Positions 6,545-32,777 of a stretch of DNA of 47,068 nucleotides are shown in pieces. The notes under the pieces were generated by a model. The model was not told the DNA's origin, ran no database searches, and worked only from the letters and a program-made list of their open reading frames with translations. The stretch is from an uncultured Eubacteriales bacterium (GTDB lineage Bacteria > Bacillota > Clostridia > Christensenellales > Christensenellaceae), in contig CABRQG010000001.1 of the NCBI GenBank assembly GCA_902473035.1, positions 1 to 47,068 of the forward strand, in the 5' to 3' direction. The translations under genes were made by a program, and so were the position numbers. How positions within the stretch are numbered: position 1 is the stretch's first letter; each line of letters begins with the position of its first letter.

Positions 6545-7495
6545 TTATTTGCTAAACTTTTTATGCCATTTCCCAACACTCTGAGCAATTGATGCAGCAT
6601 CTATTCCAAATTTCTTCATCAAATAGGCAATGTCCGCCGTCTCTCCAAAACAGTCTTGTAGTCCCAGTCGAAACAGATATGTGGGTGATTGCTCTCCAAT
6701 GACCTCTGCCACTGCACTTCCCAACCCTCCATATACCGAGTGGTTTTCCACCGAAACCAAAAACTTTGTTTGGTGCGCTGTACGGCAAATTTCCTCTCTA
6801 TCAATAGGCTTAATAAATGGCATATGGACATGCCTTACAGAAATGCCCTGTTGCTTTAGCATCGCAACTGCCTTTACTGCCTCTTGCGTGGCAATTCCTG
6901 TAGTAATCAGCCCCACGTCTTCTCCATCCGAGAGCACTATCGATTTCCCTTCCTGTAGTACGTATTTTTCGTCCATCAGGTCTGGGAAAACACCTTTATT
7001 TTGGCGAATGTAAACCGGTCCTTGGTGGAACGCACTATAGGCGAGCGCTGCTGCAAATTCTACGCCATCTGCCGGATCAATTACCTGGAATCCTGGCAGT
7101 GCGCGAAAAATTCCCATGTCGTCTATAGAAATATGCGTGCCACCATTTTTCTCGCTAGTGAGCCCAGCGTAACTTCCGATGAGTTTCACATTAAACCGGT
7201 TGTAAGCCACCGAATTTACCACCTGATCGCAACCTCTCTGGGAGACAAAGCAGGCAAAGGAAGAGGCAAAGGGTATTTTTCCCATGGCAGCTAGCCCAGC
7301 AGAAAAACTCACCAGGTTCTGTTCGGCAATTCCCACATTAAAATGCCGTTGAGGGTATTTCTTTGCGAACACATCACTGCCGGACGCCTTCATCAAATCC
7401 GCTTCTACCACAACAATGCGATCATCTTGCTCTGCCAGCTCTGCCAGCTTATTGCCGTAAATTACCTTGGTGTCTCTTGTCTTTGCTAAACTCAT
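6545..7495 (-). CDS. transketolase, C-terminal (Pyr/C) subunit, pair 1
   Basis: 316 aa. The FNVGIAEQNLVSFSAGLA pyrimidine-binding motif is typical of split transketolases. Overlaps its partner gene by 4 nt. Confidence 0.85.
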   Translation of the reverse strand: MSLAKTRDTKVIYGNKLAELAEQDDRIVVVEADLMKASGSDVFAKKYPQRHFNVGIAEQNLVSFSAGLAAMGKIPFASSFACFVSQRGCDQVVNSVAYNRFNVKLIGSYAGLTSEKNGGTHISIDDMGIFRALPGFQVIDPADGVEFAAALAYSAFHQGPVYIRQNKGVFPDLMDEKYVLQEGKSIVLSDGEDVGLITTGIATQEAVKAVAMLKQQGISVRHVHMPFIKPIDREEICRTAHQTKFLVSVENHSVYGGLGSAVAEVIGEQSPTYLFRLGLQDCFGETADIAYLMKKFGIDAASIAQSVGKWHKKFSK

Positions 7496-8307
7496 GATTG
7501 CACCTCCAAATCAGCCAATCCCCTTTGATACTGTTCTTCGCTGATGCTTCCACTGTGCCAGATATATTGATCTTCCATAAATGAAACGCCCTTGCCCTTA
7601 ATAGTATTTGCTATAATCATCGTGGGTTTTTCTGCGCACTGTTTGGCAGTGGAAATCGCCTGCTCAATCTCGTCGGTATTGTGACCGTCAATCACGAGTA
7701 CATTCCAGCTAAAAGCCCTCCACTTGTCCGCCAAAGGTTCTAAGGGCAATACTTCGTCCGTATGGCCGTCGATCTGGCATCTATTTCTGTCGGTAAAGGC
7801 AATTAGATTGCCCAGTTGATACTTGGGCGCCAACATGGCAGCTTCCCATACCTGCCCTTCATCGCTCTCACCATCTCCCAAAATAGCATAGACATAGGTA
7901 TCCAGCCCGTCTAATTTGGCAGCCATCGCCATTCCCGTAGCCACAGATAATCCCTGCCCCAGGGGGCCAGAAGAGTAATCAATGCCAGGCACCTTCAGCC
8001 GATCTACGTGTTTGGGGAGGTGCCCCCCACCCTGATCCAAGGTATCCAGCCACTCCTCTGGGAAAAATCCTTTATCTGCCAACACCACATACAGCGCCGG
8101 ACCTGCATGGCCTTTGGCCAAAACAAACCGATCCCGTAGGGGCCAATTGGGATTTTTGGGGTCTACCTTCATCACTCCGTTATACAGCACAGCGATCATC
8201 TCCATCATGGAAAGCGTCCCGCCAAAGTGCCCCCCTCCTGAATGATGGATCGTCGTAAACAGTTTCTTTCTCAGCTTCTGTGCGTATTCTTGATTTTGTT
8301 TAGACAT
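7492..8307 (-). CDS. transketolase, N-terminal (TPP-binding) subunit, pair 1
   Basis: 271 aa with SGGGHFGGTLS and GDGESDEGQVWEA TPP motifs. Confidence 0.85.
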   Translation of the reverse strand: MSKQNQEYAQKLRKKLFTTIHHSGGGHFGGTLSMMEMIAVLYNGVMKVDPKNPNWPLRDRFVLAKGHAGPALYVVLADKGFFPEEWLDTLDQGGGHLPKHVDRLKVPGIDYSSGPLGQGLSVATGMAMAAKLDGLDTYVYAILGDGESDEGQVWEAAMLAPKYQLGNLIAFTDRNRCQIDGHTDEVLPLEPLADKWRAFSWNVLVIDGHNTDEIEQAISTAKQCAEKPTMIIANTIKGKGVSFMEDQYIWHSGSISEEQYQRGLADLEVQS

Positions 8308-8333
8308 ATTCCGCCTCCCAGCATTGCAAGCTG

Positions 8334-8684
8334 CTATTTTGCGCCTTTAAAATCGTTTTTGGGATTGAACATGAAGACGAACTTCAAAGGCTCATTGGTA
8401 TCATTGATCACCTGATGCTCTACCCCTATGGGGAATAGCACAGCTGTATAGGGTTTCATCTCTTCTTTTGATCCTCCCACAATGGAAGTTCCGCTCCCCT
8501 CGATCACAAAGATGATCTCCTCTTTGTCTTCGTGAGTATGAGGATCCATTGCCGTATTTGCCGGAACCTCAGTGAGCCCTACCGACATATTATCGCTCAC
8601 CACGCCATTGGCGTCGATAAACAGATTTACTCTTCTTCCTTTTAAGTCTAATACCTTCGCATCTTTTAATTGTACTGAATACAT
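8334..8684 (-). CDS. cupin-domain protein (possible sugar isomerase)
   Basis: 116 aa. Cupin metal ligands PHTHEDKEE ... GVEHQV. Sits between the two transketolase pairs. Confidence 0.65.
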   Translation of the reverse strand: MYSVQLKDAKVLDLKGRRVNLFIDANGVVSDNMSVGLTEVPANTAMDPHTHEDKEEIIFVIEGSGTSIVGGSKEEMKPYTAVLFPIGVEHQVINDTNEPLKFVFMFNPKNDFKGAK

Positions 8685-8700
8685 GTGTTTTCCTTTCTCC

Positions 8701-9642
8701 CTATAGGGCTTTCATTTCTCTCACCTTTTGGGTGATAGCTTTTTTATCCATGCCGTAGTATTGCCGCAATTCCTGAGGGGTCCCCGTTCGCGCAAACTGA
8801 TCTTTTAAGCCCATGTGCTCTAATTGAAATTCTCCCTTTCCACACAGCAGCTCCGAGATAACACTAGCTAAACCACCTACGATATTGTGCTCTTCTATAG
8901 TGAGTATTTTTTTTGCCTTTTGACATCTAGCAATAATGTCTTCAGCATCTAAAATGGGTTTTAGAGTATGCATTTCCAACACCCCAACGTTTATGCCTTC
9001 TTGCCTTAGATCGTCCGCTGCATCCAAAGCCTCGGTGAGCACTAGGCCAGTAGCGATGAGCAATATGTCCTCCCCGCTCCGGTGCAACACCGGCTTGCCA
9101 ATGATAAACTCTTGGGCCTGCGGTTCCACTACGGGCGAAGGGTCTCTTCCCACCCTAAGATACACTGGACCTGGGTAAGCCGCTGCCGCTTTGACGGCCA
9201 GCTTTGTGGTGTAATAATCACAAGGAGCCACCACTGCCATGTTAGCAATGCAGCGCATAATCCCCAAATCCTCTGTAGCTACGTGGGTAACTCCCTCAAT
9301 TCCCGCAGAAAACCCGCCAATCCCCGCAATTACTTTCACATTCAGGTTAGGATACGCCACAAACGTCCTGAGCTGTTCACAGCACCGCATGGAGGTAAAG
9401 ACGGAATAAGAAGCCGCAAAAGGGATTTTCCCTGTGGCAGCTAGTCCTGCCGCCGGCCTAATCATATTTTGTTCTGCAATTCCCGTGTCGATAAACCTCT
9501 CTGGGAACTCCTCTTTCAGCAGTGAGGTGTACATGGATTTGGAAGTGTCAGCGCTCAGCGCCACTACATCCATACCTTCTCGCGCCAATTCCAAGATAGC
9601 CTCGCCTGCCGCCAATCTGGTTGACAGCTGCTCCTTACTCAT
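8701..9642 (-). CDS. transketolase, C-terminal subunit, pair 2
   Basis: 313 aa; FIDTGIAEQNMIRPAAGLA motif; divergent from pair 1. Confidence 0.85.
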   Translation of the reverse strand: MSKEQLSTRLAAGEAILELAREGMDVVALSADTSKSMYTSLLKEEFPERFIDTGIAEQNMIRPAAGLAATGKIPFAASYSVFTSMRCCEQLRTFVAYPNLNVKVIAGIGGFSAGIEGVTHVATEDLGIMRCIANMAVVAPCDYYTTKLAVKAAAAYPGPVYLRVGRDPSPVVEPQAQEFIIGKPVLHRSGEDILLIATGLVLTEALDAADDLRQEGINVGVLEMHTLKPILDAEDIIARCQKAKKILTIEEHNIVGGLASVISELLCGKGEFQLEHMGLKDQFARTGTPQELRQYYGMDKKAITQKVREMKAL

Positions 9643-9645
9643 CTG

Positions 9646-10485
9646 TCATCCTCCTAACTCCTCTAATGCTATTTGATATTCTTCCTGGGTCAGCGTCTTT
9701 TGGTGCCAGGCGTTGTTGTTTTCCATAAACGATACTCCCTTGCCCTTAATGGTATGCGCCAAAATCACAGTGGGCTTTCCCTTGGCATTCGCCACCTTAT
9801 CCAGCGCCTCACAGATTTGTTCCATATTGTGGCCGTCTATGGATATCACATTCCACCCAAAAGACTCCCAACGCTCCTTCCACGGCTCCATGGGCATGGT
9901 GTTTTCCACGCTATCACAGCTCTGCAGGCCATTTTGATCCACAATGGCGATCAAATTATCCAGATGGTATTTGGGCGCTAACATTGCCGCCTCCCACACC
10001 AGCCCTTCTTGACACTCACCATCTCCTAAGATCACATATACTCGATATTCTAGCTGATCTATTTTGGCAGCCAATGCCATACCCACACCAGCAGAGAGCC
10101 CGTTTCCCAAAGAGCCCGCCGTCATGTCCACACCTGGAGTTCCTTTCATATCCGGGTGTCCTTGGAGCATGCCATCAATATGTCGAAAGCCCTTTAAATC
10201 CTCGCTCGTGAGAATTCCCTTCATCTGCAGTGCACTGTATAAGACCGTACATGCATGGCCCTTAGATAAGATCAGTCGATCTCTTTGCCTCGCCGCCGGC
10301 TGATCTGGAATGATATTCATCTTATCAAAGTACAGTGCAGCCACTACGTCAGCTATGGAAAGAGCAGGGCCTGGATGAGCTTTCCGCTCCGGCCCCACGC
10401 CATAACACATATTGACGATCTGCCGGCGCAGCCTGTTTGCTTGGCTTTTTAAGTAGTTCAGACGATTCTCTTCCATCTCTCTCAC
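9646..10485 (-). CDS. transketolase, N-terminal subunit, pair 2
   Basis: 279 aa; AHPGPALS and GDGECQEGLVWEA TPP motifs. Confidence 0.85.
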   Translation of the reverse strand: MREMEENRLNYLKSQANRLRRQIVNMCYGVGPERKAHPGPALSIADVVAALYFDKMNIIPDQPAARQRDRLILSKGHACTVLYSALQMKGILTSEDLKGFRHIDGMLQGHPDMKGTPGVDMTAGSLGNGLSAGVGMALAAKIDQLEYRVYVILGDGECQEGLVWEAAMLAPKYHLDNLIAIVDQNGLQSCDSVENTMPMEPWKERWESFGWNVISIDGHNMEQICEALDKVANAKGKPTVILAHTIKGKGVSFMENNNAWHQKTLTQEEYQIALEELGG

Positions 10486-11393
10486 CTCTTCCCTTCAAAA
10501 AACAACTTCTGTGCGTTTAGTCCCATGATCTTTTCTCGTTGACCTTGGGTCAACTTACAGTCTTTTAATACATAGTCGATCAATTGTTCATAAGTGCCAC
10601 GCATGAGCATCCCAGGGTAGTCACTGCCCCACAGAATTTTATCTGCACCCACGGTGTAACACAGTTTTTCCACATAGGTACTTCCTTCTACAAAGGGATA
10701 TTTCTCATTCGCCAGATAGGCCGGTGTGGTGGACACCTCGTACCAAGCGTTGTCATACCGTTTTACCAAATGGGTCAGAGCCTCTCTATCACCGGCGTTG
10801 CGTGCATTGGCAAACGCCGCCTCTGCACCTGTATGGCAAAATACAAATTGGATGTTTTTCCACCTCTTCACTAGTTCTTCCATGCACCCAATATCTCTGC
10901 CTTGGTACAGGTGGAGCATAACAATGGCTTTTTGGCTTTCGCACACCTGCCAGATGGGCTCCATTTCCCTATCGTCCAACAGCATATCCCGTCGAAATTG
11001 AAAGGCGCTTTCCACCTCAATTTTCAGGCCACAATACTCTGGTTGTTGGAGCAACTGTTCCAACTGTCGCGCCGCGCTCTCTCCTTTGGTTACGTCTACT
11101 AGCGCCAGAGCAATCAGCCGATCTGGCCATCTCGTCACTGCATGGGCTAAGTATTCGTTGTGGTAGCCATAAAATACATTGGGAAGCAACACCGCCTTAT
11201 TCACTCCGTAAAGATCCATATGAGCCATGAACATCTCTATCGTGCTGTTGGACTGTGCAAATGATGGGGGTAAAAACCAACTGATCTCATTTCCAGTTTT
11301 AATTTTTCCATAGGACAGGGATATCTGAGGCTGGCCGTTTTTGATTCCAGAGAACTGCTCAAAAACATGGGCATGTGTATCTATCAGCAGCAT
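10482..11393 (-). CDS. amidohydrolase-2 family protein (lactonase/decarboxylase-type metal hydrolase)
   Basis: N-terminal IDTHAHVF metal motif, internal CHTG and WGSDYP motifs; 303 aa. Confidence 0.65.
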   Translation of the reverse strand: MLLIDTHAHVFEQFSGIKNGQPQISLSYGKIKTGNEISWFLPPSFAQSNSTIEMFMAHMDLYGVNKAVLLPNVFYGYHNEYLAHAVTRWPDRLIALALVDVTKGESAARQLEQLLQQPEYCGLKIEVESAFQFRRDMLLDDREMEPIWQVCESQKAIVMLHLYQGRDIGCMEELVKRWKNIQFVFCHTGAEAAFANARNAGDREALTHLVKRYDNAWYEVSTTPAYLANEKYPFVEGSTYVEKLCYTVGADKILWGSDYPGMLMRGTYEQLIDYVLKDCKLTQGQREKIMGLNAQKLFFEGKR

Positions 11394-11405
11394 ACCATCC
11401 CCACC

Positions 11406-12191
11406 TTATTCTTTCCAGAAAGCGGCACCCGGCAGGGAGCCATCCATCTCATGGCCACCATCCAGGCACACTCTAGACCCAGTCATAAACCAGGACTCGT
11501 CAGATACCATATAGAGTGCTGCATGGGCAATATCTTTTGGGTAGGCGATTTTGCCCACTGGTATGCGTTTTTCCAACGCCGCTACCACAGCAGGAGTATA
11601 CATATCTTTGTTGATCTCGGTATAGACCGCCCCAGGGGCCAGTATATTAGCCGTGATCCCATAGGGAGCTACTTCCGAGGCAAGGGTTCGGGTGAATGCC
11701 TCAATGCCGCCTTTAGTGGCGGTATAAGCACAGGCGTCAGGTTCGGATATTTTCGCGTGGATGGACGATACATTGACAATTCTGCCGCCTTTGCCCTGTT
11801 TAATCATCTGAGCAGCAGCGTATTTACTGCCGTAAAACACACCATACAGGTTATTGCGAATCACTTTATCCCATTTTTCCAGTTCCAAATCCACCACTGT
11901 TCCTTGGGCAATTCTCCCTGCATTGTTAACCATAATATTTAATTGGCCATAGCGCTCTACTGTCTCCTCTACAAACGCCTTGACCTCCTGGGCATTGGAC
12001 ACATCCGCCTTTACAAAAAAGGCCTCTGAACCCGCATCTTTTACCATCTGCACTGCTGAAGCGCCTCGTTCTTCATTTTGTCCTACCAGACAGAGTTTCG
12101 CTCCTGCTTTGGCAAACAGTTCCGCCATGCCTCGTCCGATACCGGAGTTCCCACCAGTAATAATTGCAACTTTTCCCTCTAATGAAAGCAT
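11406..12191 (-). CDS. short-chain dehydrogenase/reductase (classical, catalytic motifs intact)
   Basis: TGGNSGIG cofactor motif, NNAG, S...YTATK catalytic triad. Confidence 0.85.
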   Translation of the reverse strand: MLSLEGKVAIITGGNSGIGRGMAELFAKAGAKLCLVGQNEERGASAVQMVKDAGSEAFFVKADVSNAQEVKAFVEETVERYGQLNIMVNNAGRIAQGTVVDLELEKWDKVIRNNLYGVFYGSKYAAAQMIKQGKGGRIVNVSSIHAKISEPDACAYTATKGGIEAFTRTLASEVAPYGITANILAPGAVYTEINKDMYTPAVVAALEKRIPVGKIAYPKDIAHAALYMVSDESWFMTGSRVCLDGGHEMDGSLPGAAFWKE

Positions 12192-12257
12192 TTCCTTTTA
12201 CTCCTCTCTTTGCTTGCCAAGGAGCTAGCTACGCGGCCAGCCCCTTTTTAGCTGTCC

Positions 12258-12623
12258 TTAAAACTGTTTTAGTTTGCCATTTAGTTGCTGTTCCAGGTCA
12301 AACACCTTTTCCAACACATCCATATCGCTGTTGAAGTTCCCATCAGCATCTAGGCACTGTTCCTCTTCTTCGCTGAGCCAAGGCACTACCGTCTGATACC
12401 ACTTCTTGCCACATTCTGTCTCTCCAAATCCCTTCATAAATACCTCATAATCATCTGTCTTGACGTATACAATAGCAATATCCCGATAGATATAGATGAC
12501 TTCTTCCTCTGCTCCATTGTCCTTAAGCGCCTGTAAAATTTCCATAGGCGCAGTCTTATGGATGTTCATGTAGTTTTCCTTATACTCTGGTTTTAGTACG
12601 TTAATAAAGCAATACTTTTTCAT
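12258..12623 (-). CDS. RhaM/DUF718-like sugar mutarotase
   Basis: 121 aa. The N-terminal pattern (CFINVLKPEYKENYMNIHKT ... ILQALKDNG) resembles L-rhamnose mutarotase-family proteins. Confidence 0.5.
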   Translation of the reverse strand: MKKYCFINVLKPEYKENYMNIHKTAPMEILQALKDNGAEEEVIYIYRDIAIVYVKTDDYEVFMKGFGETECGKKWYQTVVPWLSEEEEQCLDADGNFNSDMDVLEKVFDLEQQLNGKLKQF

Positions 12624-12673
12624 GTTTTTATCTCCTATCGTGTCATATTGTCGATTTGATATTCCGTGTTTCC

Positions 12674-13393
12674 TTAGCCCATATACATGCCGCCGTTTAC
12701 GTCCAACACTGCTCCAGTGATAAAGCCCGCCTTATCCGAGGCTAAAAACGCCACTGCATTGGCGATATCCTCCGGTGTGCCAAACTTCCGCAAGGGAATG
12801 GTCAGTCTCACTTTTTCCCTTCTCTGTTCATCCAGTTTTTGGAACATATCCGTCATAGTGGGGCCAGGCGCCACACAATTCACGTGGATGTTGTACGGGG
12901 CCAGCTTGGCAGCCAATCCGCGGGTCATGCCGATTACGCCCGCTTCCAATCCGCCGTTTCTGCCAGCGATGGAAGATAGGTTGACAATTTTACCATACCC
13001 TTGTACCTTCATTTGCTCTAGCACGCTTTGAATGAGAAAAAAGGCGCCTCTCAAATTGATGGAATGTTCTAAATCCCATTCCTTTAATGTGATGTCTTCC
13101 ACCGGTGTAATTCCATAGATGCCGGCGTTGTTCACCAGAATGTGAATCGCCCCATGTGTTTTTATTACATCTGCTGCCATTTTCTGCACAGCCTCTACAT
13201 CAGTTAAATTGACCTCATAGGCGTGTGCTTTTCCTCCCTGGCAGCAAATCTCCTGGGCGCTGGCGCGTGCCCTTTCCCCATCTAGATCTGCCAGGATGAC
13301 GGTTGCACCTCCCATCGCCAGTTGCCTTGCGCACTCTTTACCGATGCCCTTGGCTGAGCCAGTGACAATTGCAATTTTGTCTTGAAATTCCAT
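12674..13393 (-). CDS. SDR-fold protein lacking the YxxxK catalytic motif
   Basis: TGSAKGIG and NNAG are present. About 8 residues, including the catalytic Tyr and Lys, are absent between SSIAGRNGG and AGVIGMT. AAGGAA RBS before ATG 13393; the ORF track start 13438 is probably too early. Confidence 0.75.
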   Translation of the reverse strand: MEFQDKIAIVTGSAKGIGKECARQLAMGGATVILADLDGERARASAQEICCQGGKAHAYEVNLTDVEAVQKMAADVIKTHGAIHILVNNAGIYGITPVEDITLKEWDLEHSINLRGAFFLIQSVLEQMKVQGYGKIVNLSSIAGRNGGLEAGVIGMTRGLAAKLAPYNIHVNCVAPGPTMTDMFQKLDEQRREKVRLTIPLRKFGTPEDIANAVAFLASDKAGFITGAVLDVNGGMYMG

Positions 13394-13492
13394 TTTGATG
13401 TTCCTTCTCTCTGTTTTTTGGGTGCGGGAAATAATCACTTGGCCAAATTTTGTCCAAGAGCGCTTATTTCTCTCTTCCCTATTGTTTTGTCA

Positions 13493-14515
13493 TTAGGTAG
13501 ATTGCCTGATAATTAATTCTGGCTGTAACACCACTTTGAGCAGTTCTCCATAGGATTTTTCAGCTTCTAGTGAGTTGATGATATACTCTGCTGCCTTTGA
13601 CCCTATAGTATATCTGGCGTGGTGTACCGAAGTGAGTGGGATTTCCAGATATTCTGTAATCTCTATGTCGTCACAACTTACAATGCCGACCTGGTCGGGA
13701 ATGGATACCTGATGGTTCCTAAGCGCTTTGAGCACCCCTATGGCAATATAGCTTCCCAGACAGACAAGAGAGTAAGGCGGCTTTTTTTCCTTGATCAACT
13801 GCTCTGCCGCCAAAAAGCCTCCACGGCTGGTGTTTTCTGTATAAAGAGCCATATCGCTTTTAAACTGCCTATTTTGGCTTTTCAATATCTCCTGAAATGC
13901 ATTTAGGCGAATCTTAGTAGGCAAAAGTTCTTTTGGACCACCCACAAAATAGATTGGTCGGTCATGGTAGCGCTCCAGTAGATGGGTCGTAGCCAGTTCA
14001 ATAATTTTCTTATCGTTGTTGATCACAAAGCTCACATCGTCCAGCTGTGCGGTATCGAACTCTCTGGCCATGAGGATACAGGGCAAAGTGAGATTGCGGT
14101 AGTTTTCTGGCTGAACAGGTACAGCTAGTATCCCATCCACTTGTAAACTGATGGCTGTATGAATCGCCTGTCTTTCATCTTCTTCATTTTCATTGGTATT
14201 CATGAAGATGACGATGTAGTTTTTCTTTTTGGCGGTTTCCTCAATCCCTTTGATGAGTAATGCATTGTATGGATTTGCGTTATCCGGCACCAAAATACAC
14301 AGGGTTTTGGATTTGCCTGTCCGCAACACATTGGCAAAATAGTTGGTCGAATAGTTCATCTCCTTTGCTGCTTTAATCACCTTTTGTCTGGTCTCTTCAC
14401 TGATATCAGGACTTCCCTTTAGGGAACGGCTCACAGCAGCAGTAGAGATGCCCACTTTGTTGGCAATGTCTTTTAATGTTACGCGATTTGATTTTTTTGT
14501 CGTTGTCTTGCTCAC
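13493..14515 (-). CDS. LacI-family transcriptional regulator
   Basis: N-terminal HTH VTLKDIANKVGISTAAVSRSLKG plus a periplasmic-binding-like core; 340 aa. Confidence 0.85.
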   Translation of the reverse strand: MSKTTTKKSNRVTLKDIANKVGISTAAVSRSLKGSPDISEETRQKVIKAAKEMNYSTNYFANVLRTGKSKTLCILVPDNANPYNALLIKGIEETAKKKNYIVIFMNTNENEEDERQAIHTAISLQVDGILAVPVQPENYRNLTLPCILMAREFDTAQLDDVSFVINNDKKIIELATTHLLERYHDRPIYFVGGPKELLPTKIRLNAFQEILKSQNRQFKSDMALYTENTSRGGFLAAEQLIKEKKPPYSLVCLGSYIAIGVLKALRNHQVSIPDQVGIVSCDDIEITEYLEIPLTSVHHARYTIGSKAAEYIINSLEAEKSYGELLKVVLQPELIIRQST

Positions 14516-14602
14516 TATTCCACCTCAAATACTACAAAAGATCCATACAGAATTATGCTACCATATTTTATTGTAAATTGTCACCATAATTGTATTATTT
14601 GA

Positions 14603-15583
14603 CTATTTATTTTCGGTCTGTGCAATGATCTCATCCACATTTTCCTGAGTAACTAGCACGAAAGGCACCATGATATCATGTTCGGTCTCTTCGCCTTTTG
14701 CCCACTGAAGCGCCACGTCAATGGAGGTTTCTCCCTGGGTTTTAGCATCTTGGAACACCGTGCAAGCAAGTCTCCCATCCTTTACAGCTAGCAGCGCATC
14801 TGCAATGGCGTCTACGCCTACTACGATGATCTCATCTTGCCTGCCGCGTGCCTCTACTGCCTGTAAGGCACCCATTGCCATATCATCGTTTTGGCACAAA
14901 ATCGCATCAATGTCTGGATATTGGGTGAGCCAGTCCTCTGCCAAAGTCATCGCTTGATCACGCTGCCAATCGGCGTTTTGTTCTGCCAGCACCTCAATTT
15001 CCGTGCCATCTAACAGGCCTTTTTGCACGCCTTCTCTTCTCTCGTTGGTAGCAGATTGGCCAGCTAGGCCCTGCATAATGCACACTTTGCCTTTGCCACC
15101 TAATAGCTCTTTCACATAGTTTCCTTGAATGTAGCCAGCTTCCACATCGTCCGACCCCACATAAGCCTGGTAATCTTTGGATTCTGTGGGCAGGTTGCAC
15201 TCAATGATGGGAATCCCCTTTTCGTTGCAAAGCTCTACTGCTGCATCCAGCCCCTTCGAATCGTGTGCATTCAAGATCACTGCATCCACACCCTGGGCTA
15301 CAAATGTCTCTACTTGAGAGATTTGAGTCGCAATATCAGCAGAGGCATCTTGCATGATGATCTCCAGCCCCGGAATTTCCTCAGCGTGTTTCTGCATCGC
15401 ATCTGCAATGTTCTTGGGGAATTCATCTTGCAGGTTCTTCATGGTGATGCCAATGGTGTAGGTCTCTTCCCCTTCTGCAGGCGCATTGCTATCTTGCGTT
15501 GTCGCCTCCGGCTGTTGGGCGCACCCTACTAGCATGAGAGTTACCATCATCACACACAGCACAATTGCTAACCATTTTTTCAT
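14603..15583 (-). CDS. sugar ABC transporter substrate-binding lipoprotein (RbsB-like)
   Basis: Lipobox LMLVGC. Type I PBP fold signatures; 326 aa. Confidence 0.8.
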   Translation of the reverse strand: MKKWLAIVLCVMMVTLMLVGCAQQPEATTQDSNAPAEGEETYTIGITMKNLQDEFPKNIADAMQKHAEEIPGLEIIMQDASADIATQISQVETFVAQGVDAVILNAHDSKGLDAAVELCNEKGIPIIECNLPTESKDYQAYVGSDDVEAGYIQGNYVKELLGGKGKVCIMQGLAGQSATNERREGVQKGLLDGTEIEVLAEQNADWQRDQAMTLAEDWLTQYPDIDAILCQNDDMAMGALQAVEARGRQDEIIVVGVDAIADALLAVKDGRLACTVFQDAKTQGETSIDVALQWAKGEETEHDIMVPFVLVTQENVDEIIAQTENK

Positions 15584-15670
15584 TCTTTTTTCCTCCTACT
15601 TTATTTTTTATTAGCTATGCGCTAATATTTTCCATAGATTCTCTTCCGTCTTTCTTCACCTTGCCTATAT

Positions 15671-16648
15671 TTATTTCCTGCCCCGCTTATTGAGCATATC
15701 GAACAACACTGCTGCCAAAATGATCACACCTTTACAAATATCCTGGTAATAGGAGGATACGTTGAGCAGCGTTAAGGCGTTGTTGAGAATGCCGATGACG
15801 ATAAAGCCCACTACCGTACCGGCAATCGTTCCCACGCCACCAGAAAGGCTAGTGCCACCGATGACTACGGCAGTAATGGCATCTAACTCATAGCCTTCGC
15901 CAATGGCCGGCTGCCCCGAGCTGATTCTAGCCGCTAAGATAATGCCCGATATCCCAGCAAACAGGCCATTGATGGAATATACCGCGATTCTCTTCCTCTT
16001 GACTTTTACTCCAGACATCACTGCAGTGTTGGCATTGCCGCCGATGGCGTAAATCTCCCTGCCAAAGGTGGTATGATGCAGCAGTACATAGCTGAAGATG
16101 ATAAGCACCACCAGTATAATCACCGGAATGGGAATAATCCCTAGATGTCCCTGGCCAATCTGCCGAAAGGATTCGGACGATAGAATATAAGGCCGTCCAT
16201 CCGCATACACCAATCCAAAGCCACGGGCAATGGTCATAGTGGCCAGCGTCACCACAAAGGGTGGCATGTTAAATCCTGCAATAAATGCTCCATTAATGAG
16301 TCCAAAGATTGTGGTCACCGCCAGCGCCGCCAAAATTGCCAACCACACCAAGCTCTCATCGATGGTGATAATACTGCCTGCAATCGTCCCCGCTACCGCT
16401 ACCAACGCGCCCACAGATAAATCAATGCCGTCGCTTATGATGACCAATGTCATGCTCAGGGCAATAATTCCATTAATCGATACCTGACGCAGAACGTTTA
16501 GTATGTTATCTGCCGTAAAAAACACATTGGATATAATGCTCATCACGATGATCATAATTAACATTACAATCAAAAGACCATATTTTCTCAAAAGATTACC
16601 CAAATTTTTGTTGCTGGATAGCACAGCTTCTTGTTTTCCCATGTTCAT
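15671..16648 (-). CDS. sugar ABC transporter permease (RbsC/AraH-like)
   Basis: 325-aa polytopic protein with a typical monosaccharide permease sequence. Confidence 0.8.
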   Translation of the reverse strand: MNMGKQEAVLSSNKNLGNLLRKYGLLIVMLIMIIVMSIISNVFFTADNILNVLRQVSINGIIALSMTLVIISDGIDLSVGALVAVAGTIAGSIITIDESLVWLAILAALAVTTIFGLINGAFIAGFNMPPFVVTLATMTIARGFGLVYADGRPYILSSESFRQIGQGHLGIIPIPVIILVVLIIFSYVLLHHTTFGREIYAIGGNANTAVMSGVKVKRKRIAVYSINGLFAGISGIILAARISSGQPAIGEGYELDAITAVVIGGTSLSGGVGTIAGTVVGFIVIGILNNALTLLNVSSYYQDICKGVIILAAVLFDMLNKRGRK

Positions 16649-16650
16649 GT

Positions 16651-18150
16651 TTATACTCCTCCCAATGCATAGCGTATAATCGTCTCGGAATCCGCATCAT
16701 CCCTAGAGCATTCGCCCCGAATACGGCCGCCACTCACAATGATAATCCTGTCACTCATCCCCATAATCTCCGGCATCTCTGAGGATATGAGTATGATTGC
16801 GATGCCCTGGCTTGCCAAATCGCAGATCATTTTATGGATTTCCGATTTCGCCCCTACATCAATTCCTCTGGTCGGTTCATCCAAGATGAGCACTTTGGGG
16901 TGGGTGAGCAACCACTTTGCCAAAACCACCTTTTGCTGATTGCCGCCCGATAGATTCTCCACAAGCTGTTGCGGTCCGCTCATCTTGACGTTGAGGGATT
17001 TTGCCATTTCTAGTACTCTCTTTTTTTCCTCTCTCCGATTGATAATGCTCCATTTGGATATTTGTTTGAGACTTGCTAGGGAAATGTTCTCCAAAATAGA
17101 CCGGCATACCACTAAGCCTAGTTCTTTCCTATCCTCGGTAACCAAGATAACGCCTTCACGAATCGCATCACTGGTGTGTTTAATAGAGAGTTTTTTGCCG
17201 CCTAAAAAGATCTCACCTGCATCCAAAGGGTCATATCCCACAATAGACTTGACAATTTCACTTCGCCCCGCACCTACCAGGCCAGTAATCCCTAAAATCT
17301 CGCCCTTTTTTACTGAAAAACTCACATCCTCAAAGACGCCTTTATGCGTAAGCCCTTTCACTTCAAAAATCGTCTCCCCAATGGGTACTTGGTATTTCGG
17401 GAAGATGTTATTGAGTTCTCGCCCCACCATCATGGAGATGAGCTGATCTTTGGTAATCTCACTGGCTTTTTCCTCACCGATAAAACACCCATCTCGAAAT
17501 ACTGTGATTCTATCGCTAATTTGGAAGATTTCATCCATTCTGTGAGATATGTACACAATGCTGACGCCTTTGCTCTTTAAATTTCGAATCATTCGAAAGA
17601 GCACATCCACTTCACTTTCTGATAGTGCAGAAGTGGGCTCATCCATGAGAATTATTTTCGATTCTCTTGACACAGCTTTTACGATTTCCACCATCTGCAT
17701 CTGTGCTACACTCAAATCCCGTAGCAACGTCTGAGGAGAAAACATTTCGCCAATCTCTAACTCCTCAAACAGCTTTTTCGTCTGTTCAAATTGCCTTTTC
17801 CTGTCAATAAATGGCGTGTGTTTATATTTCATTTGCCTTCCTATAAATAGGTTATCCGCCACCGTCATATCGAGAATTGGGCTTAATTCCTGGTGAATCA
17901 TGCAAATACCTGCATCCAAAGACTCCTTAGGGCTATTTACCTTTAGGGGTTTTCCTTCAAAGAAAATTTCGCCACTGTCCTTTTTATTGAGGCCTATCAA
18001 AATTTTCATCAAAGTGGATTTACCTGCACCGTTTTCACCCATAAGTGCGTGCACTTCCCCCTTGCGCACTGTAAAATTCACATTTTTTAGCGCCTGTACG
18101 CCCGGGAAAGATTTCGACACTCCCTTGACTTCCAACAAAACATCATTCAT
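16651..18150 (-). CDS. sugar ABC transporter ATP-binding protein (two fused ATPase domains)
   Basis: Walker A GENGAGKST, signature LSGGNQQK, Walker B LILDEPT; 499 aa. Confidence 0.9.
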   Translation of the reverse strand: MNDVLLEVKGVSKSFPGVQALKNVNFTVRKGEVHALMGENGAGKSTLMKILIGLNKKDSGEIFFEGKPLKVNSPKESLDAGICMIHQELSPILDMTVADNLFIGRQMKYKHTPFIDRKRQFEQTKKLFEELEIGEMFSPQTLLRDLSVAQMQMVEIVKAVSRESKIILMDEPTSALSESEVDVLFRMIRNLKSKGVSIVYISHRMDEIFQISDRITVFRDGCFIGEEKASEITKDQLISMMVGRELNNIFPKYQVPIGETIFEVKGLTHKGVFEDVSFSVKKGEILGITGLVGAGRSEIVKSIVGYDPLDAGEIFLGGKKLSIKHTSDAIREGVILVTEDRKELGLVVCRSILENISLASLKQISKWSIINRREEKKRVLEMAKSLNVKMSGPQQLVENLSGGNQQKVVLAKWLLTHPKVLILDEPTRGIDVGAKSEIHKMICDLASQGIAIILISSEMPEIMGMSDRIIIVSGGRIRGECSRDDADSETIIRYALGGV

Positions 18151-18245
18151 CTGATCGCTCCTTTAATTATCAGTTTCCATTTGTTTTGAGTATTTTGTTT
18201 TACGAATTCCTTGGATGTTACTAGTGAGATTTTAGCTAAAAATTT

Positions 18246-18261
18246 ACTATAACGTTATAGT
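18246..18261. promoter_or_regulatory. LacI-type operator O1
   Basis: ACTATAACGTTATAGT, a perfect 16-bp palindrome with a central CG, just downstream of the -10 box. Confidence 0.6.
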
Positions 18262-18264
18262 TAA

Positions 18265-18293
18265 ATAATATGCTAATATTTTCATTATGTCAA
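18265..18293 (-). promoter_or_regulatory. promoter of the sugar locus
   Basis: Minus strand: TTGACA (18288-18293), 17 nt, TATTAT (18265-18270). Confidence 0.6.
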
Positions 18294-18384: not shown

Positions 18385-18400
18385 ACTATAACGTTAAAGC
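18385..18400. promoter_or_regulatory. LacI-type operator O2 (imperfect copy)
   Basis: ACTATAACGTTAAAGC shares the ATTTACTATAACGTTA left arm with O1. Centres are 139 bp apart. Confidence 0.45.
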
Positions 18401-28185: not shown

Positions 28186-29379
28186 TTAATTACTTACCCT
28201 TAATCCTCTCTCCTCCTGTATCTGAGCGTAGAGAGCATCTAAGTCTCTCTCCCCTAGATAATAGCTTTGTATATCTATACTACTAACAGTATCTCCCCTT
28301 ATTTCAATCTTCAGCCAGTATTCTGTCACATCTTCAACTGGTTTTTCATCCTTAGATCTATCTCGAGTGCATACACTCCAAGTATTCCCCTGTTTTTGAA
28401 CTCCTAAGTCAATATATCCATCTATTTTCAGTATGTCCCGATTGGTTTTTGCAAATTCTTCCAACGTTTTTCCTTTCCATTGCTCTTCGGATATTGGTCT
28501 GCTGTAAAAATTTATACTCGATATTGTGAAATCCCCATAGGCCTCACATAATTCTTCCATCTTGCTTAGAAATCCTATTCCTCGCAGAGTAGTACAATCT
28601 TGGTAAGAACTATTCATACCGTATATTCTACTCTCAACTATGGGGTATTTTTCCGTTGCCGTATCCGTATACACTGGTTCACTTCCCCTATATATGCCAA
28701 ATTCTTGTTCTGATATATTCTCCAGTATCTCTCCCTGATATTTTGAAGGCTGCTTTGTTGTTTGTTCCTGAAGTACGTCTTCTTCTTTTTCCTCAGGATG
28801 CGCTCCAAAACGCCACATATCTATACACTCTAATATCATCTTCCCATATTGATCATCAAACTGAAAATCTACAGAATATCTTACATCTTCTTCGGACACT
28901 GGCTCTCGAGTAAATTCACAAGTTCCCGGCTTGCAATACCAGGTATATCCGATATAACAGCTGCCTAACGCCCCACTCCAATTTGGACCTGCTAATTCCT
29001 TCATTTGATCCAAGTTTTCAATAGGCTCTGAAAATCCACTAAAAGATACCTCATCTGGCATTCCCCAGCCTTCATATGCTTCCAGCATTTGCTCCAAGCT
29101 ATCTTGTAGTTTAATTCCTCGCCAGGTTTCATAAGCCAAGTTTTCCGTGTCAAAGTAGCTTGTATACTTTATATAAACTCTCGCCAAACTAGGCTCTCCT
29201 TCCAAATCGATGTGCTTATCTAGCTTGCCATCTTTATAGAGGCCAAAATCCGCTAAAGTTGCCCCTCCTGTTTTGGGTTCTTTATCATACGGCCTATTTT
29301 CTGGCTCCCCAGTGCACCCTATCACCCCTATTAGACATGCACATACTAGTATGATGATCCCTATAATCCGTTTCCCCAT
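28186..29379 (-). CDS. two-domain lipoprotein, paralog A
   Basis: Start set at MGKRIIGIIILVCACLIGVIGC (lipobox), by alignment with paralog B and the shared GA-rich RBS. The ORF track begins at 29463. Confidence 0.7.
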   Translation of the reverse strand: MGKRIIGIIILVCACLIGVIGCTGEPENRPYDKEPKTGGATLADFGLYKDGKLDKHIDLEGEPSLARVYIKYTSYFDTENLAYETWRGIKLQDSLEQMLEAYEGWGMPDEVSFSGFSEPIENLDQMKELAGPNWSGALGSCYIGYTWYCKPGTCEFTREPVSEEDVRYSVDFQFDDQYGKMILECIDMWRFGAHPEEKEEDVLQEQTTKQPSKYQGEILENISEQEFGIYRGSEPVYTDTATEKYPIVESRIYGMNSSYQDCTTLRGIGFLSKMEELCEAYGDFTISSINFYSRPISEEQWKGKTLEEFAKTNRDILKIDGYIDLGVQKQGNTWSVCTRDRSKDEKPVEDVTEYWLKIEIRGDTVSSIDIQSYYLGERDLDALYAQIQEERGLRVSN

Positions 29380-29485
29380 CCAAATCTTTCCCTTTTCCTT
29401 TTTTCCCATTATCCCATGTTTTCCCACTTTCGTCCATTGCAAATTCGGTTTATTTCGACACAAAAACTATTTCATCCAGTATTTT

Positions 29486-29591
29486 TACTCTATATCTTTT
29501 AGATGTACGGTACAGGCGATTTTCCTTTACACCTGATTTACATCTTATCTGATGTATTCTCATCATTCTATATTACATCTCATTAGGTGTA
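29486..29591. repeat. three to four further copies of the TACAYC-N6-GRTGTA palindrome between the paralogs
   Basis: 29486-29507 (longer spacer), 29528-29545 overlapping 29539-29556 (perfect TACATC/GATGTA), and 29574-29591. Confidence 0.75.
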
Positions 29592-29611
29592 AACCTCTTC
29601 CTCTCCCCTTA

Positions 29612-29639
29612 GCAAAAGAAGCAGCTCCAAAGCTGCTCC
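29612..29639 (-). terminator. terminator of lipoprotein paralog B
   Basis: Hairpin identical to 28145-28172. Confidence 0.75.
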
Positions 29640-29655
29640 CTCACTACTATTTTAA

Positions 29656-30816
29656 TTACTTACCGAATCCTCTCTCCTCCTGTATCTGGGCGTACAGGGC
29701 GTCTAGGTCCCTCTCTCCTAGATAAAAAGACCGTAAAAAAATCTCTTTCACTTTGCCATTTTCTGTGGTCACATCCATCCAGTATTCCGTCACATCCTCC
29801 ACCGGCTCTTTTTGCGTGCGCCTATCTCTCGTGCATACACTCCAGGTATCTCCCTGCTTCTGCATCCCAAATTCTAAAGTGAGCGATCCTTTTATCAAAT
29901 CTGGATTCTGTTTGGCAAATTCATCTAGTGTCAGTCCTTCCCATTGCTCTTTGGGTAAGGATTCTACCTTCCTTGCATAGCTCACCCTCGTAAGATGAAA
30001 CTCCCCATAGGCCTCACAGAGCTCTTCCACACTGCTCAGATATTCTATACCCCGCAGCGTATTGTATTTATCACGTTTGTCTATCTGATATTCCGCGTAT
30101 GGATTTTGCTCTGTTGCCGTTGCCGTCTCTGCTGGTTCACTTCCCCGGTACAGCCCAAACTCTTCTTCTGACATATTCTCCAGTATTTCCCCCTGGTATT
30201 GGGCGGGCTCCTGATTTGTTTCTATCTCTTTTTTTATCTCAGGATGCTCTCCCGAACGAGTAAGTCTAATGTGAGTTAATACTATCTCGTCGCCCGCTCC
30301 CTTACCGAATGAAAAATTGATCGTATATTCCACATCATTTTCTGTTTTCGGCTCCCTGGTAAACTCACAGGTCCCCGGCTTGCAATACCAGGCATATTCT
30401 AAACTGGCATGAAATATTTCTAAGTCCGCCGTTTGCCTAATCAATTCTAACAGTTCATTCATGTCTGTTATATTGCCAGCCTTTGGATCGCTTTGATCTG
30501 GCATTCCCCAATCTTTATATGCCTCTGCCACCTTCTCTATACTGTCTGTTAACTGAATTCCTCTCCAGGTTTGATACGCTAAATTCTCCGCATCTAATGG
30601 GCCCTCATATCGGATATATAATGCCCCTCTAATTGCTGAACCCGTTAAATCCACATGATCGTTCAACTGGCCATTTTCGTACAACCCAAAATCCGCCAAG
30701 GTTGCCCCTCCTGTTTTGGGCTCTTTGTCATATGGCCTATTTTCTGGTTCCCCAGTGCACCCTATCAGCCCTATCAAACATGCACACACTAGTATGATCC
30801 CTATCATCCGTTTCAT
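29656..30816 (-). CDS. two-domain lipoprotein, paralog B
   Basis: MKRMIGIILVCACLIGLIGC lipobox. The first ~45 aa and last ~35 aa are near-identical to paralog A; the middle is divergent. Confidence 0.7.
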   Translation of the reverse strand: MKRMIGIILVCACLIGLIGCTGEPENRPYDKEPKTGGATLADFGLYENGQLNDHVDLTGSAIRGALYIRYEGPLDAENLAYQTWRGIQLTDSIEKVAEAYKDWGMPDQSDPKAGNITDMNELLELIRQTADLEIFHASLEYAWYCKPGTCEFTREPKTENDVEYTINFSFGKGAGDEIVLTHIRLTRSGEHPEIKKEIETNQEPAQYQGEILENMSEEEFGLYRGSEPAETATATEQNPYAEYQIDKRDKYNTLRGIEYLSSVEELCEAYGEFHLTRVSYARKVESLPKEQWEGLTLDEFAKQNPDLIKGSLTLEFGMQKQGDTWSVCTRDRRTQKEPVEDVTEYWMDVTTENGKVKEIFLRSFYLGERDLDALYAQIQEERGFGK

Positions 30817-30900
30817 CCAAATCTTTCCCCTTTCCCTTTTTCCCCATTATCCCATATTTTCCCACTTCAGTCCACAGCGAACTTCATCTATTTTTGTCGA

Positions 30901-32514: not shown

Positions 32515-32777
32515 TGTCTTTCCCCTTCCTTTTTTTGGAGGAGAGCAGCTGTTTTCTTTCCTGCTCTCCTCATTTGCTTGCAAATGGTGCTGCCAAAACC
32601 CCGCGTCCTATTCGGTGGAACATCTAGCCTAGGCCTATTCTTCTTAGCAATGGCTTCTTGGCCAATTAGCCTATGGCCGCTTTGGAATGAGCTCTGTTGC
32701 TATTTCACCGCCCGGTCTTTGTCATTTCAACAATCAGCCCATAATAGTAGGCGCTGGAGCTTCTGGCTATTTATCCA

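Follow-up and report, generated by a model that had tools for sequence, protein, structure and literature searches.

Organization of the operon

The window analyzed here, the whole 47,068-nt stretch of contig CABRQG010000001.1, carries on its minus strand an operon of a gut bacterium (6545-18150) that encodes a CUT2-type importer, a LacI-family repressor, two short-chain dehydrogenases/reductases (SDRs), a RhaM-family protein, an amidohydrolase and two split transketolases (TK1 and TK2) with a cupin gene between them. An earlier note, made from the DNA letters, had described this region as a 13-gene, LacI-controlled minus-strand unit; all 13 co-directional open reading frames (ORFs) were found at the coordinates given there, and their Pfam families match the earlier listing. 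In the order of transcription, the regulatory features and genes are as follows.

18386-18399, no strand assigned: second operator-like copy (O2), CTATAACGTTAAAG, one mismatch, 139 bp upstream of O1
18265-18293, minus strand: sigma-70-type promoter, TTGACA-17 nt-TATTAT, intergenic and upstream of rbsA, 11 of 12 consensus positions, a consensus match only
18247-18260, no strand assigned: operator-like perfect 14-bp palindrome (O1), CTATAACGTTATAG, no mismatches, directly downstream of the -10 hexamer
16651-18150, minus strand: CUT2-type ATP-binding cassette (ABC) ATPase, RbsA-like, two ABC_tran domains (Pfam)
15671-16648, minus strand: CUT2-type ABC permease, RbsC-like, BPD_transp_2 (Pfam)
14603-15583, minus strand: lipoprotein solute-binding protein, Peripla_BP_4 (Pfam, E 3e-65), with a visible lipobox LVGC
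13493-14515, minus strand: LacI-family repressor with LacI helix-turn-helix (HTH) and Peripla_BP_1/3 domains
12674-13438, minus strand: FabG-like SDR, proposed aldonate (omega-1)-dehydrogenase; the window allele has a 27-bp in-frame deletion near 12945/12946
12258-12623, minus strand: RhaM-family protein, possibly a mutarotase (PF05336, weak match, 43.5 bits)
11406-12191, minus strand: classical SDR with an intact catalytic motif, proposed to act as an aldose 1-dehydrogenase
10482-11393, minus strand: Amidohydro_2 protein (PF04909), proposed aldonolactonase
9646-10485, minus strand: TK2 N-subunit, thiamine diphosphate-binding, Transketolase_N, motif KAHPGPALS
8701-9642, minus strand: TK2 C-subunit (Pyr and C domains), R358, S385 and R520 kept, H461I, E468I and D469E
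8334-8684, minus strand: 116-aa metal monocupin (Cupin_2) with H49, H51, E55/E56 and H90, proposed aldose-ketose isomerase for a short aldehydo-acid
7492-8307, minus strand: TK1 N-subunit, Transketolase_N, motif GGGHFGGTLS
6545-7495, minus strand: TK1 C-subunit, R358K, S385A, H461Y, E468K, D469N and R520K

Gaps between the operon genes are at most 87 nt, or the ORFs overlap, and terminator-like hairpins within the operon are no more frequent than in shuffled sequence. The promoter named in the earlier note was found in place. Apart from O1 and O2, the matches to the operator palindrome in the window have three mismatches each, which is chance level, and a related palindrome, CTACAACGATATAG, is located at the promoter of an orthologous locus in a second organism (L009). 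The placement of O1 and O2 resembles the usual layout of a LacI-family operator pair, and the LacI protein may bind at these palindromes. Features of a LacI-family system are present in the N-terminal LacI HTH, the periplasmic-binding-protein-like effector domain and the palindrome at the regulated promoter. These observations support a single LacI-controlled catabolic unit. A kinase, an aldolase and a dehydratase are encoded neither in the locus, as the earlier note had stated, nor in its flanks.

Two diverged split transketolases and a small cupin family

The Pfam domains Transketolase_N, Transket_pyr and Transketolase_C were all found in the TK pairs. Residues were numbered according to Escherichia coli TktA (L017) and were also mapped on the canonical split TK of Carboxydothermus (6yaj). 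The cofactor-binding and catalytic residues H26, H66, H100, D155, N185, H261, E411 and H473 are kept in both TKs and in their relatives, and six pocket positions read as follows in the two clades.

R358: K in the TK1 clade; R kept in the TK2 clade
S385: A in the TK1 clade; S kept in the TK2 clade
H461: Y in the TK1 clade; I or L in the TK2 clade
E468: K in the TK1 clade; I in the TK2 clade
D469: N in the TK1 clade; E in the TK2 clade
R520: K in the TK1 clade; R kept in the TK2 clade

These substitutions are clade-specific and conserved, and the direct alignment with 6yaj agrees for TK1. The canonical sugar-phosphate pocket (R358, S385, H461 and R520) together with D469 is intact in neither TK, and both pairs fall under the NCBIfam transketolase equivalog cut-offs. 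TK1 and TK2 share 38% identity and fall into separate conserved clades, and the N-subunit motifs GGHFGGTLS and AHPGPALS, to which the earlier note had drawn attention, are each specific to one of the two clades. Judged from their sequences, TK1 and TK2 are old paralogues with different active sites and not the products of a recent duplication, in agreement with the earlier proposal.

Engineering of E. coli TktA to R358I/H461S/R520Q increases its activity on 5-keto-D-gluconate, with tartaric semialdehyde as the product (PMC12016104), and the natural substitutions in TK1 and TK2 therefore sit at positions where the 5-keto-gluconate reaction is controlled. TK cleavage of 5-keto-gluconate to L-threo-tetruronate has also been demonstrated, the substrate being described by the authors as non-natural for TK (PMC13527115).

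The cupin encoded between the two TKs belongs to a small family, with 28 clusters among 5.8 billion proteins, in which the His/His/Glu/His metal ligands are invariant in 27 sequences. KdgF is a monocupin acting on uronates. The structural model of the cupin (pLDDT 94) best matches 7zvy, the minimal cupin phosphomannose isomerase (PMI) of Thermococcus kodakarensis (structural similarity score TMt 0.89), and then KdgF (TMt 0.81-0.86), with a sequence identity of just 16-20%. In 14 of the 14 non-redundant loci with sufficient flank, the cupin gene is located no more than two genes from a TK2-clade TK gene.

Importer, regulator and upper-module enzymes

Among solved structures, the solute-binding protein is closest to 4yo7 (E 3e-61), in which myo-inositol is presumably bound, and next to binding proteins for ribose and polyols. 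The LacI protein falls under every NCBIfam equivalog cut-off. The RhaM-like protein, which had been called a mutarotase in the earlier note, does match that family weakly, but its score against TIGR02625 is 26.5 bits (cut-off 99.6), and the gene is accessory because it is missing from the orthologous locus L009/L010.

The FabG-like SDR had been noted as lacking the YxxxK motif. The motif is indeed absent in the window, but the gene is a mutant allele of an ordinary SDR. The 27-bp in-frame deletion takes out AGITYSSSK, including the catalytic Tyr and Lys, and a short GCGGG repeat lies at its bounds. The two human-gut metagenome contigs L001 and L003, otherwise 100% identical to the window, have the intact motif (the allele reads ...GLEAGITYSSSKAGVIG...), as does the 61% identical orthologue in L009. 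Because the deletion is confined to the window and the relatives are intact, the protein is regarded as an ordinary FabG-like SDR, which in its intact form resembles 3-oxoacyl reductases. The idea of a conserved pseudo-enzyme was rejected, as YxxxK is missing through a strain-specific deletion, which either is a loss-of-function allele of natural origin or arose in the assembly. Other gene callers place the start of this SDR at an internal ATG (MEFQDK). For the second SDR (11406-12191), the top solved match is 5x8h, an uncharacterised SDR, and the best matches otherwise are glucose 1-dehydrogenases.

The Amidohydro_2 protein belongs to a rare clade with 21 clusters at E<1e-10. Its AlphaFold model (pLDDT 92.6) is nearest to the LigI/COG3618 subgroup, with TMt 0.81 for 4i6k and 0.75 for 2ffi and 4mup, in comparison with 0.50-0.65 for decarboxylases, and the fuconolactonase 4dlf is a distant profile match (8e-8). 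By its predicted structure, the protein is closest to lactonases of the LigI/COG3618 type, an assignment made by fold ranking alone. Elsewhere, members of this clade are encoded in acid-sugar loci, together with a 2-keto-3-deoxygluconate (KDG) kinase, a 2-keto-3-deoxy-6-phosphogluconate (KDPG) aldolase and a GarD/UxaA-type dehydratase (L020) or together with an IolG-like dehydrogenase and an HpcH aldolase near an inositol-phosphate-synthase-like gene (L022).

Genomic contexts of the TK2-cupin-TK1 cassette

Scans with the cupin alignment identified six loci in genome contigs and nine in metagenome contigs, and most of the context was obtained by exact-protein look-ups. The earlier note had asked whether the TK-cupin-TK cassette occurs elsewhere with the amidohydrolase/SDR module, and it does. 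In the second organism (L009/L010), the order SDR-SDR-Amidohydro_2-TK2-cupin-TK1 is found beside a divergent LacI gene, with 49-71% protein identity; this locus differs in that it lacks a RhaM gene, has an additional, third SDR and encodes another ABC importer behind the cassette. The order TK2-cupin-TK1 (Type A) occurs in the window, L009, L024 and L033/L034, and in reverse in L029-L031.

Genes for an IolG-like dehydrogenase and for an IolM equivalog (516-518 bits against a cut-off of 450) flank the cassette in L033/L034 and L024, and one for an IolN equivalog (291 bits against a cut-off of 245) comes after it in L033/L034. IolM is scyllo-inosose 3-dehydrogenase and IolN is 3-dehydro-scyllo-inosose hydrolase, as defined by curated NCBIfam equivalogs. 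The L024 contig ends just past TK1. L033/L034 also encode a xylose-isomerase-like TIM-barrel protein, further Gfo/Idh/MocA dehydrogenases and a LacI protein. The enzymes usually found downstream (tagaturonate reductase, altronate dehydratase, KDG kinase and KDPG aldolase) are not encoded in L033/L034 and L024, where the cassette takes over that position. L018 encodes an IolN equivalog (318 bits) directly upstream of a TK1-clade TK but has neither cupin nor TK2. The Thermotoga-type inositol route (IolG, IolM and IolN; IolO) gives 5-keto-L-gluconate, from which epimerisation leads to D-tagaturonate (PMC5931981, PMC12632266). Since IolM and IolN are encoded with the cassette (L033/L034), or IolN with TK1 alone (L018), the cassette would consume the product of this route.

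A second line of context is provided by tripartite ATP-independent periplasmic (TRAP) transporters, the binding proteins of which typically take organic anions. The closest solved relatives of the TRAP binding protein include the sialic-acid binder SiaP. In Type B loci (L011-L015, L025 and L026), a GntR regulator, a 455-aa transaldolase-like protein, a VOC/glyoxalase-fold protein, a TRAP transporter and a TK2-like enzyme are encoded together; the cupin gene is inserted between dctQ and dctM, and the gene of the TK2-like enzyme then follows. Type B operons, which are conserved in Oscillospiraceae (for example L011 5460-13464) and encode an unusually long transaldolase-like protein, probably serve to break down an imported sugar acid in a related way, likewise without a kinase. 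Type C loci combine a TRAP transporter with the cupin, a TK2-like enzyme and a further TK, which is TK1-like in L008, together with a class II aldolase and a PfkB kinase, and belongs to a third clade in L028. In all, ten loci beyond those with IolM or IolN have the cupin gene between dctQ and dctM of a TRAP transporter, with a TK2-clade TK adjoining where the flank suffices. L035, a fourth type of its own, encodes a CUT2 importer and a single SDR together with the cupin, a third-clade TK and a TK2-like enzyme. The cupin and TK2 are thus the invariant pair; which TK partners them and which module feeds them differ between loci. The three independent lines of context, namely the IolM/IolN loci, anion import by TRAP transporters and the amidohydrolase loci, point to keto sugar acids as the substrate of the cassette. 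The TK2-cupin-TK1 cassette itself is most likely the lower pathway and acts on an (omega-1)-keto sugar acid, and the absence of a dehydratase, which the earlier note had pointed out, is therefore no gap.

Several further observations concern these TK clades. The third split-TK clade (motif G[SY]GH[IL]GGSMS) replaces TK1 beside cupin-TK2 in L035 (3071-8397) and L028 (3774-4598), and L035 encodes an RpiB/LacAB-type isomerase divergently. TK1-clade enzymes without the cupin occur in L007, L018 and L019. In L018 (6704-14384) and L007 (6690-13926), neither of which has TK2, the TK1-clade TK is encoded beside a CitE-like C-C lyase and an aldehyde dehydrogenase, which in L018 is of the CoA-acylating type by NCBIfam, and L018 also has Zn-dependent alcohol dehydrogenases. 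A 2-hydroxyacid dehydrogenase and a glycerate kinase are encoded near the TK1-clade genes in both L007 and L018. These two gene sets look like an alternative disposal of a C4 aldehydo-acid. In L019 (1-16000), a TK1-like TK gene is located beside a microcompartment locus (BMC shell proteins, PTAC, aldehyde dehydrogenase and DeoC-like aldolase), together with genes for an SDR, a xylose-isomerase-like TIM-barrel protein, an FGGY kinase and a class II aldolase.

Proposed catabolic pathway

Based on these data, we tentatively propose that the operon serves to break down an imported neutral carbohydrate without expense of ATP, via a keto-aldonate and two TK cleavages; we infer all of its enzymatic steps, and the whole is put forward as somewhat short of probable. 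The imported carbohydrate is most probably an aldohexose. The CUT2 ABC system would import the sugar, and the RhaM-like protein may interconvert its anomers. The glucose-dehydrogenase-like SDR (11406-12191) could then oxidise C1 to form a lactone, which would be opened by the Amidohydro_2 protein to yield the aldonate. The FabG-like SDR (12674-13438), which is intact elsewhere, may oxidise the penultimate carbon to give an (omega-1)-keto-aldonate, namely a 5-keto-hexonate resembling 5-dehydro-gluconate or tagaturonate, the HOCH2-CO-CHOH end of which makes it a TK donor. One split TK, probably TK1, would transfer a C2 unit to glyceraldehyde-3-phosphate to form xylulose-5-phosphate and a C4 aldehydo-acid, 2,3-dihydroxy-4-oxobutanoate (tartrate semialdehyde, a tetruronate). 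The metal cupin could isomerise this C4 aldehyde to the ketose-type acid 2,4-dihydroxy-3-oxobutanoate, from which the other TK, probably TK2, may remove a second C2 unit to form a second xylulose-5-phosphate and glyoxylate. TK1 is assigned to the first cleavage because TK1-like enzymes occur alone next to IolN, and TK2 to the second because it is inseparable from the cupin isomerase. Transcription would be repressed by LacI at the two palindromic operators flanking the promoter. The carbon would enter central metabolism in phosphorylated form via the acceptor, which would explain why the operon has neither kinase nor aldolase nor dehydratase.

More generally, the TK2-cupin-TK1 cassette may, with about the same likelihood, constitute a modular and hitherto undescribed keto-aldonate transketolase shunt that converts 5-keto-hexonates to two xylulose-5-phosphates and glyoxylate without ATP. 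With the same reservation, the 5-keto-hexonates could be supplied from aldoses, from inositols or by direct TRAP import. An equally provisional corollary is that the TKs would be natural enzymes with a phosphate pocket rebuilt for carboxylates, working with a new KdgF/PMI-like isomerase of C4 aldehydo-acids.

The earlier note had read the mutarotase, SDR and lactonase families as the signature of a 6-deoxyhexose (L-fucose-type) route. Those families are present, with a weak RhaM match and a lactonase assigned by fold ranking alone, but 6-deoxyhexoses fit poorly as substrates. According to established TK chemistry, a 6-deoxy-aldonate is without the terminal CH2OH-CO group needed for donation, and since it cannot yield a TK donor, L-fucose and other 6-deoxyhexoses were rejected as substrates.

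A number of points weigh against the proposed pathway. TK1 is without all four canonical phosphate ligands but has Lys at both 358 and 520. The order of TK1 before TK2, deduced only from stand-alone occurrences, is the weakest part of the model. No protein of the window matches the IolM or IolN equivalogs (NF041097 and NF041098), and no TRAP transporter is encoded in the window; the keto-acid inference therefore rests on the cassette shared with the other loci. The locus contains no gene for glyoxylate disposal, and glyceraldehyde-3-phosphate is an assumed acceptor. Donors of the tagaturonate type would have the erythro, not the classical D-threo, configuration at C3/C4; that the substitutions at position 469 accommodate erythro donors is a conjecture. 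SDR specificities are not readable from sequence, and the profile search with the Amidohydro_2 protein gives 6e-15 for 4i6k and 7e-15 for decarboxylases, so that lactonase and decarboxylase are not separable by this measure. In addition, the window allele of the FabG-like SDR is probably inactive, and if the 27-bp deletion is genuine, oxidation of the penultimate carbon should be blocked in this strain.

Alternative explanations

The same TK-cupin-TK logic could operate on a five-carbon skeleton, a reading that is considered unlikely. An aldopentose (stereochemically D-arabinose or L-xylose) would be converted via the pentonate to a 4-keto-pentonate, from which a TK would form xylulose-5-phosphate and tartronate semialdehyde; the cupin would isomerise the latter to hydroxypyruvate, and an irreversible-donor TK reaction would give xylulose-5-phosphate and CO2. 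This scheme is chemically complete with exactly the genes at hand, leaves no residue and raises no glyoxylate problem, and hydroxypyruvate has long been known as a donor for TKs. The D-threo configuration that is canonical for donors would be present in 4-dehydro-D-arabinonate, L-fucose-type dehydrogenases and lactonases are known to accept D-arabinose, and the 2-hydroxyacid dehydrogenase and glycerate kinase of L007 and L018 fit a C3 hydroxy-acid node. However, the only acid identified by genomic context, through the IolM/IolN genes of L033, L024 and L018, is a six-carbon keto acid; nothing points directly to a pentose, and the binding protein is not near any known arabinose binder. An inositol as the substrate of the operon is rather improbable. 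In that case, the two SDRs and the Amidohydro_2 protein would be non-orthologous stand-ins for IolG, IolM and IolN, with two ring oxidations and a hydrolytic ring opening leading to the same 5-keto-hexonate for the cassette. Two dehydrogenases and a metal-type hydrolase correspond one-to-one in function to the genes around the cassette of L033/L034, the Amidohydro_2 family includes C-C hydrolases (LigY), an Amidohydro_2 homologue is found near inositol-phosphate-synthase-like and IolG-like genes in L022, the nearest solved relative of the binding protein is 4yo7, presumably with myo-inositol bound, and the orthologous locus L009 is without a mutarotase-like gene. On the other hand, the known inositol dehydrogenases are of the Gfo/Idh/MocA or medium-chain dehydrogenase/reductase type, not SDRs, the RhaM-family gene in the window suggests a hemiacetal sugar, and the Amidohydro_2 fold is nearest to lactonases in a window whose proteins match neither Iol model.

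Two further schemes were considered. A neutral ketose could be processed as in a non-sulfonated analogue of the sulfo-TK pathway, where the SDR pair would reduce an aldose to the alditol and re-oxidise that to a 2-ketose, a TK would cleave the unphosphorylated ketose, the cupin would isomerise the shortened aldose, and the second cleavage would leave glycolaldehyde or a similar product. The sulfo-TK pathway does use an unphosphorylated donor and a TK-isomerase-TK sequence (PMC12890257, PMC11659671), and for the E. coli apiose cluster it has been proposed that a pair of SDRs takes over from the isomerase (PMC13001218). L035, with a single SDR plus the cupin, two TKs and the ABC importer, would also suit this scheme; nevertheless, it is judged quite improbable, as it assigns no function to the conserved Amidohydro_2 gene, accounts neither for the cupin-TK2 pair inside TRAP operons nor for the IolM/IolN flanking, and has no gene at hand for the final aldehyde. 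A decarboxylative route, in which the FabG-like SDR would oxidise C3 of the aldonate and the Amidohydro_2 protein would act as a beta-keto-acid decarboxylase that passes a ketose shortened by one carbon to the TKs, appears very improbable. The likeness of the intact FabG-like SDR to 3-oxoacyl reductases would accord with it, as would the many decarboxylases among Amidohydro_2 members and their profile scores equal to those of the lactonases. In contrast, size-normalised structural similarity favours the lactonase subgroup, two TK steps around an isomerase are hard to reconcile with a carbon count that runs from hexose via pentulose to triose, and the TRAP and IolN contexts would be unexplained.

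Comparison with known pathways

The closest logic to that of the proposed keto-aldonate route is found in the sulfo-TK pathway, the likeness being one of gene content and order only. In this kinase-free pathway, a split TK moves a C2 unit from an unphosphorylated anionic ketose to glyceraldehyde-3-phosphate, followed by an isomerase and a second cleavage (PMC12890257, PMC11659671). The pathway of Clostridium sp. MSTE9 and Faecalicatena (SqvD, SqwGH and SqwI) likewise belongs to anaerobic Firmicutes and follows the same TK-isomerase-TK logic without a kinase. However, one TK performs both cleavages there, whereas two clades with 38% identity are present here, and the anion is a sulfonate, whereas here it would be a carboxylate that is made by oxidation or imported. 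Neither a sulfoquinovose isomerase, a sulfoquinovosidase, a sulfoacetaldehyde reductase nor a sulfonate exporter was recognised in the locus, in which no metal-dependent alcohol dehydrogenase, exporter or additional isomerase was found.

The apulose-4-phosphate TK branch of D-apiose catabolism (AptA/AptB and AplK) resembles the operon in combining a dedicated split TK with a CUT2 ABC importer and SDRs (PMC13001218). In contrast to the operon, it needs an FGGY kinase, has one TK pair and contains no cupin. Orthology to AptAB was rejected: either TK shares 35-38% identity with AptAB of E. coli SE15, which is no closer than TK1 is to TK2, the AptAB pocket differs (A358/N461/L469), and no kinase is encoded here, so that the earlier exclusion of this branch for want of a kinase holds.

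The upper part of the proposed pathway has counterparts in oxidative sugar catabolism, to which the L-galactose pathway of Bacteroides vulgatus is reportedly similar. In the oxidative L-galactose, L-glucose and L-fucose upper pathways, a 1-dehydrogenase, a COG3618 lactonase and an aldonate 5-dehydrogenase lead to D-tagaturonate or 5-keto-L-gluconate (PMC12632266). The predicted steps, the enzyme families of the upper module and the 5-keto-hexonate product are the same, but those routes go on via tagaturonate reductase, altronate dehydratase, KDG kinase and KDPG aldolase, whereas TK2-cupin-TK1 is found here instead. Similarly, the published Thermotoga-type inositol pathway goes on via hexuronates, not TKs, and the window is without IolG, IolM and IolN. 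Tartaric acid biosynthesis and its engineering involve the same first TK reaction as the proposed pathway, in which a 5-keto-hexonate is split into a C2 unit and L-threo-tetruronate (PMC12016104, PMC13527115, PMC7970118). That reaction is a weak side activity of housekeeping TKs in a biosynthetic setting, whereas the role here would be a dedicated, physiological and catabolic one.

The full-text literature covered, from which most subscription journals fall outside, contains no natural TK-dependent route for keto-aldonates, hexuronates or inositols, and no published equivalent of the locus was found there, consistent with the earlier statement that it matches no nameable pathway. Homologs of the whole cluster with an assigned pathway were likewise not found, nor was a kinase or dehydratase just outside the locus. 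On present evidence, what is new is a variant of kinase-free transketolase logic built from conserved, uncharacterised enzyme clades.

Other features of the window

The operon is flanked by the his operon upstream and by genes for an HTH protein, BioY and leucyl-tRNA synthetase downstream. A hidden kinase or dehydratase was sought and none was found in the 47 kb. The sole aldolase gene of the window is of the DeoC type and is located 17 kb away on the other strand; an acid-sugar dehydratase followed by a 2-keto-3-deoxy aldolase or hydrolase is encoded neither in the locus nor anywhere in the window. The region 28186-32583 comprises three consecutive minus-strand ORFs (425, 386 and 560 aa) without a Pfam match and is the part of the window with the lowest GC content (about 40%) and the strongest GC skew. 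A lone gene for a Gfo/Idh/MocA oxidoreductase is present at the far end of the window (45958-46971), 28 kb from the operon, with no operator-like palindrome associated with it.

Implications for acid-sugar and inositol catabolism

If the proposed pathway is correct, it would represent a third strategy for the breakdown of acid sugars and inositols, besides the dehydratase/aldolase and kinase/decarboxylase routes. Having no ATP cost, it would be attractive for fermentative anaerobes of gut and sediment, and it would account for the extra split transketolases in the sugar loci of many Clostridia. It would also provide natural enzymes for the conversion of 5-keto-gluconate to tartaric semialdehyde, which is now forced from housekeeping TKs for tartaric acid production. 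Furthermore, testable functions would be available for the two TK clades, the 28-cluster cupin family and the rare amidohydrolase clade.

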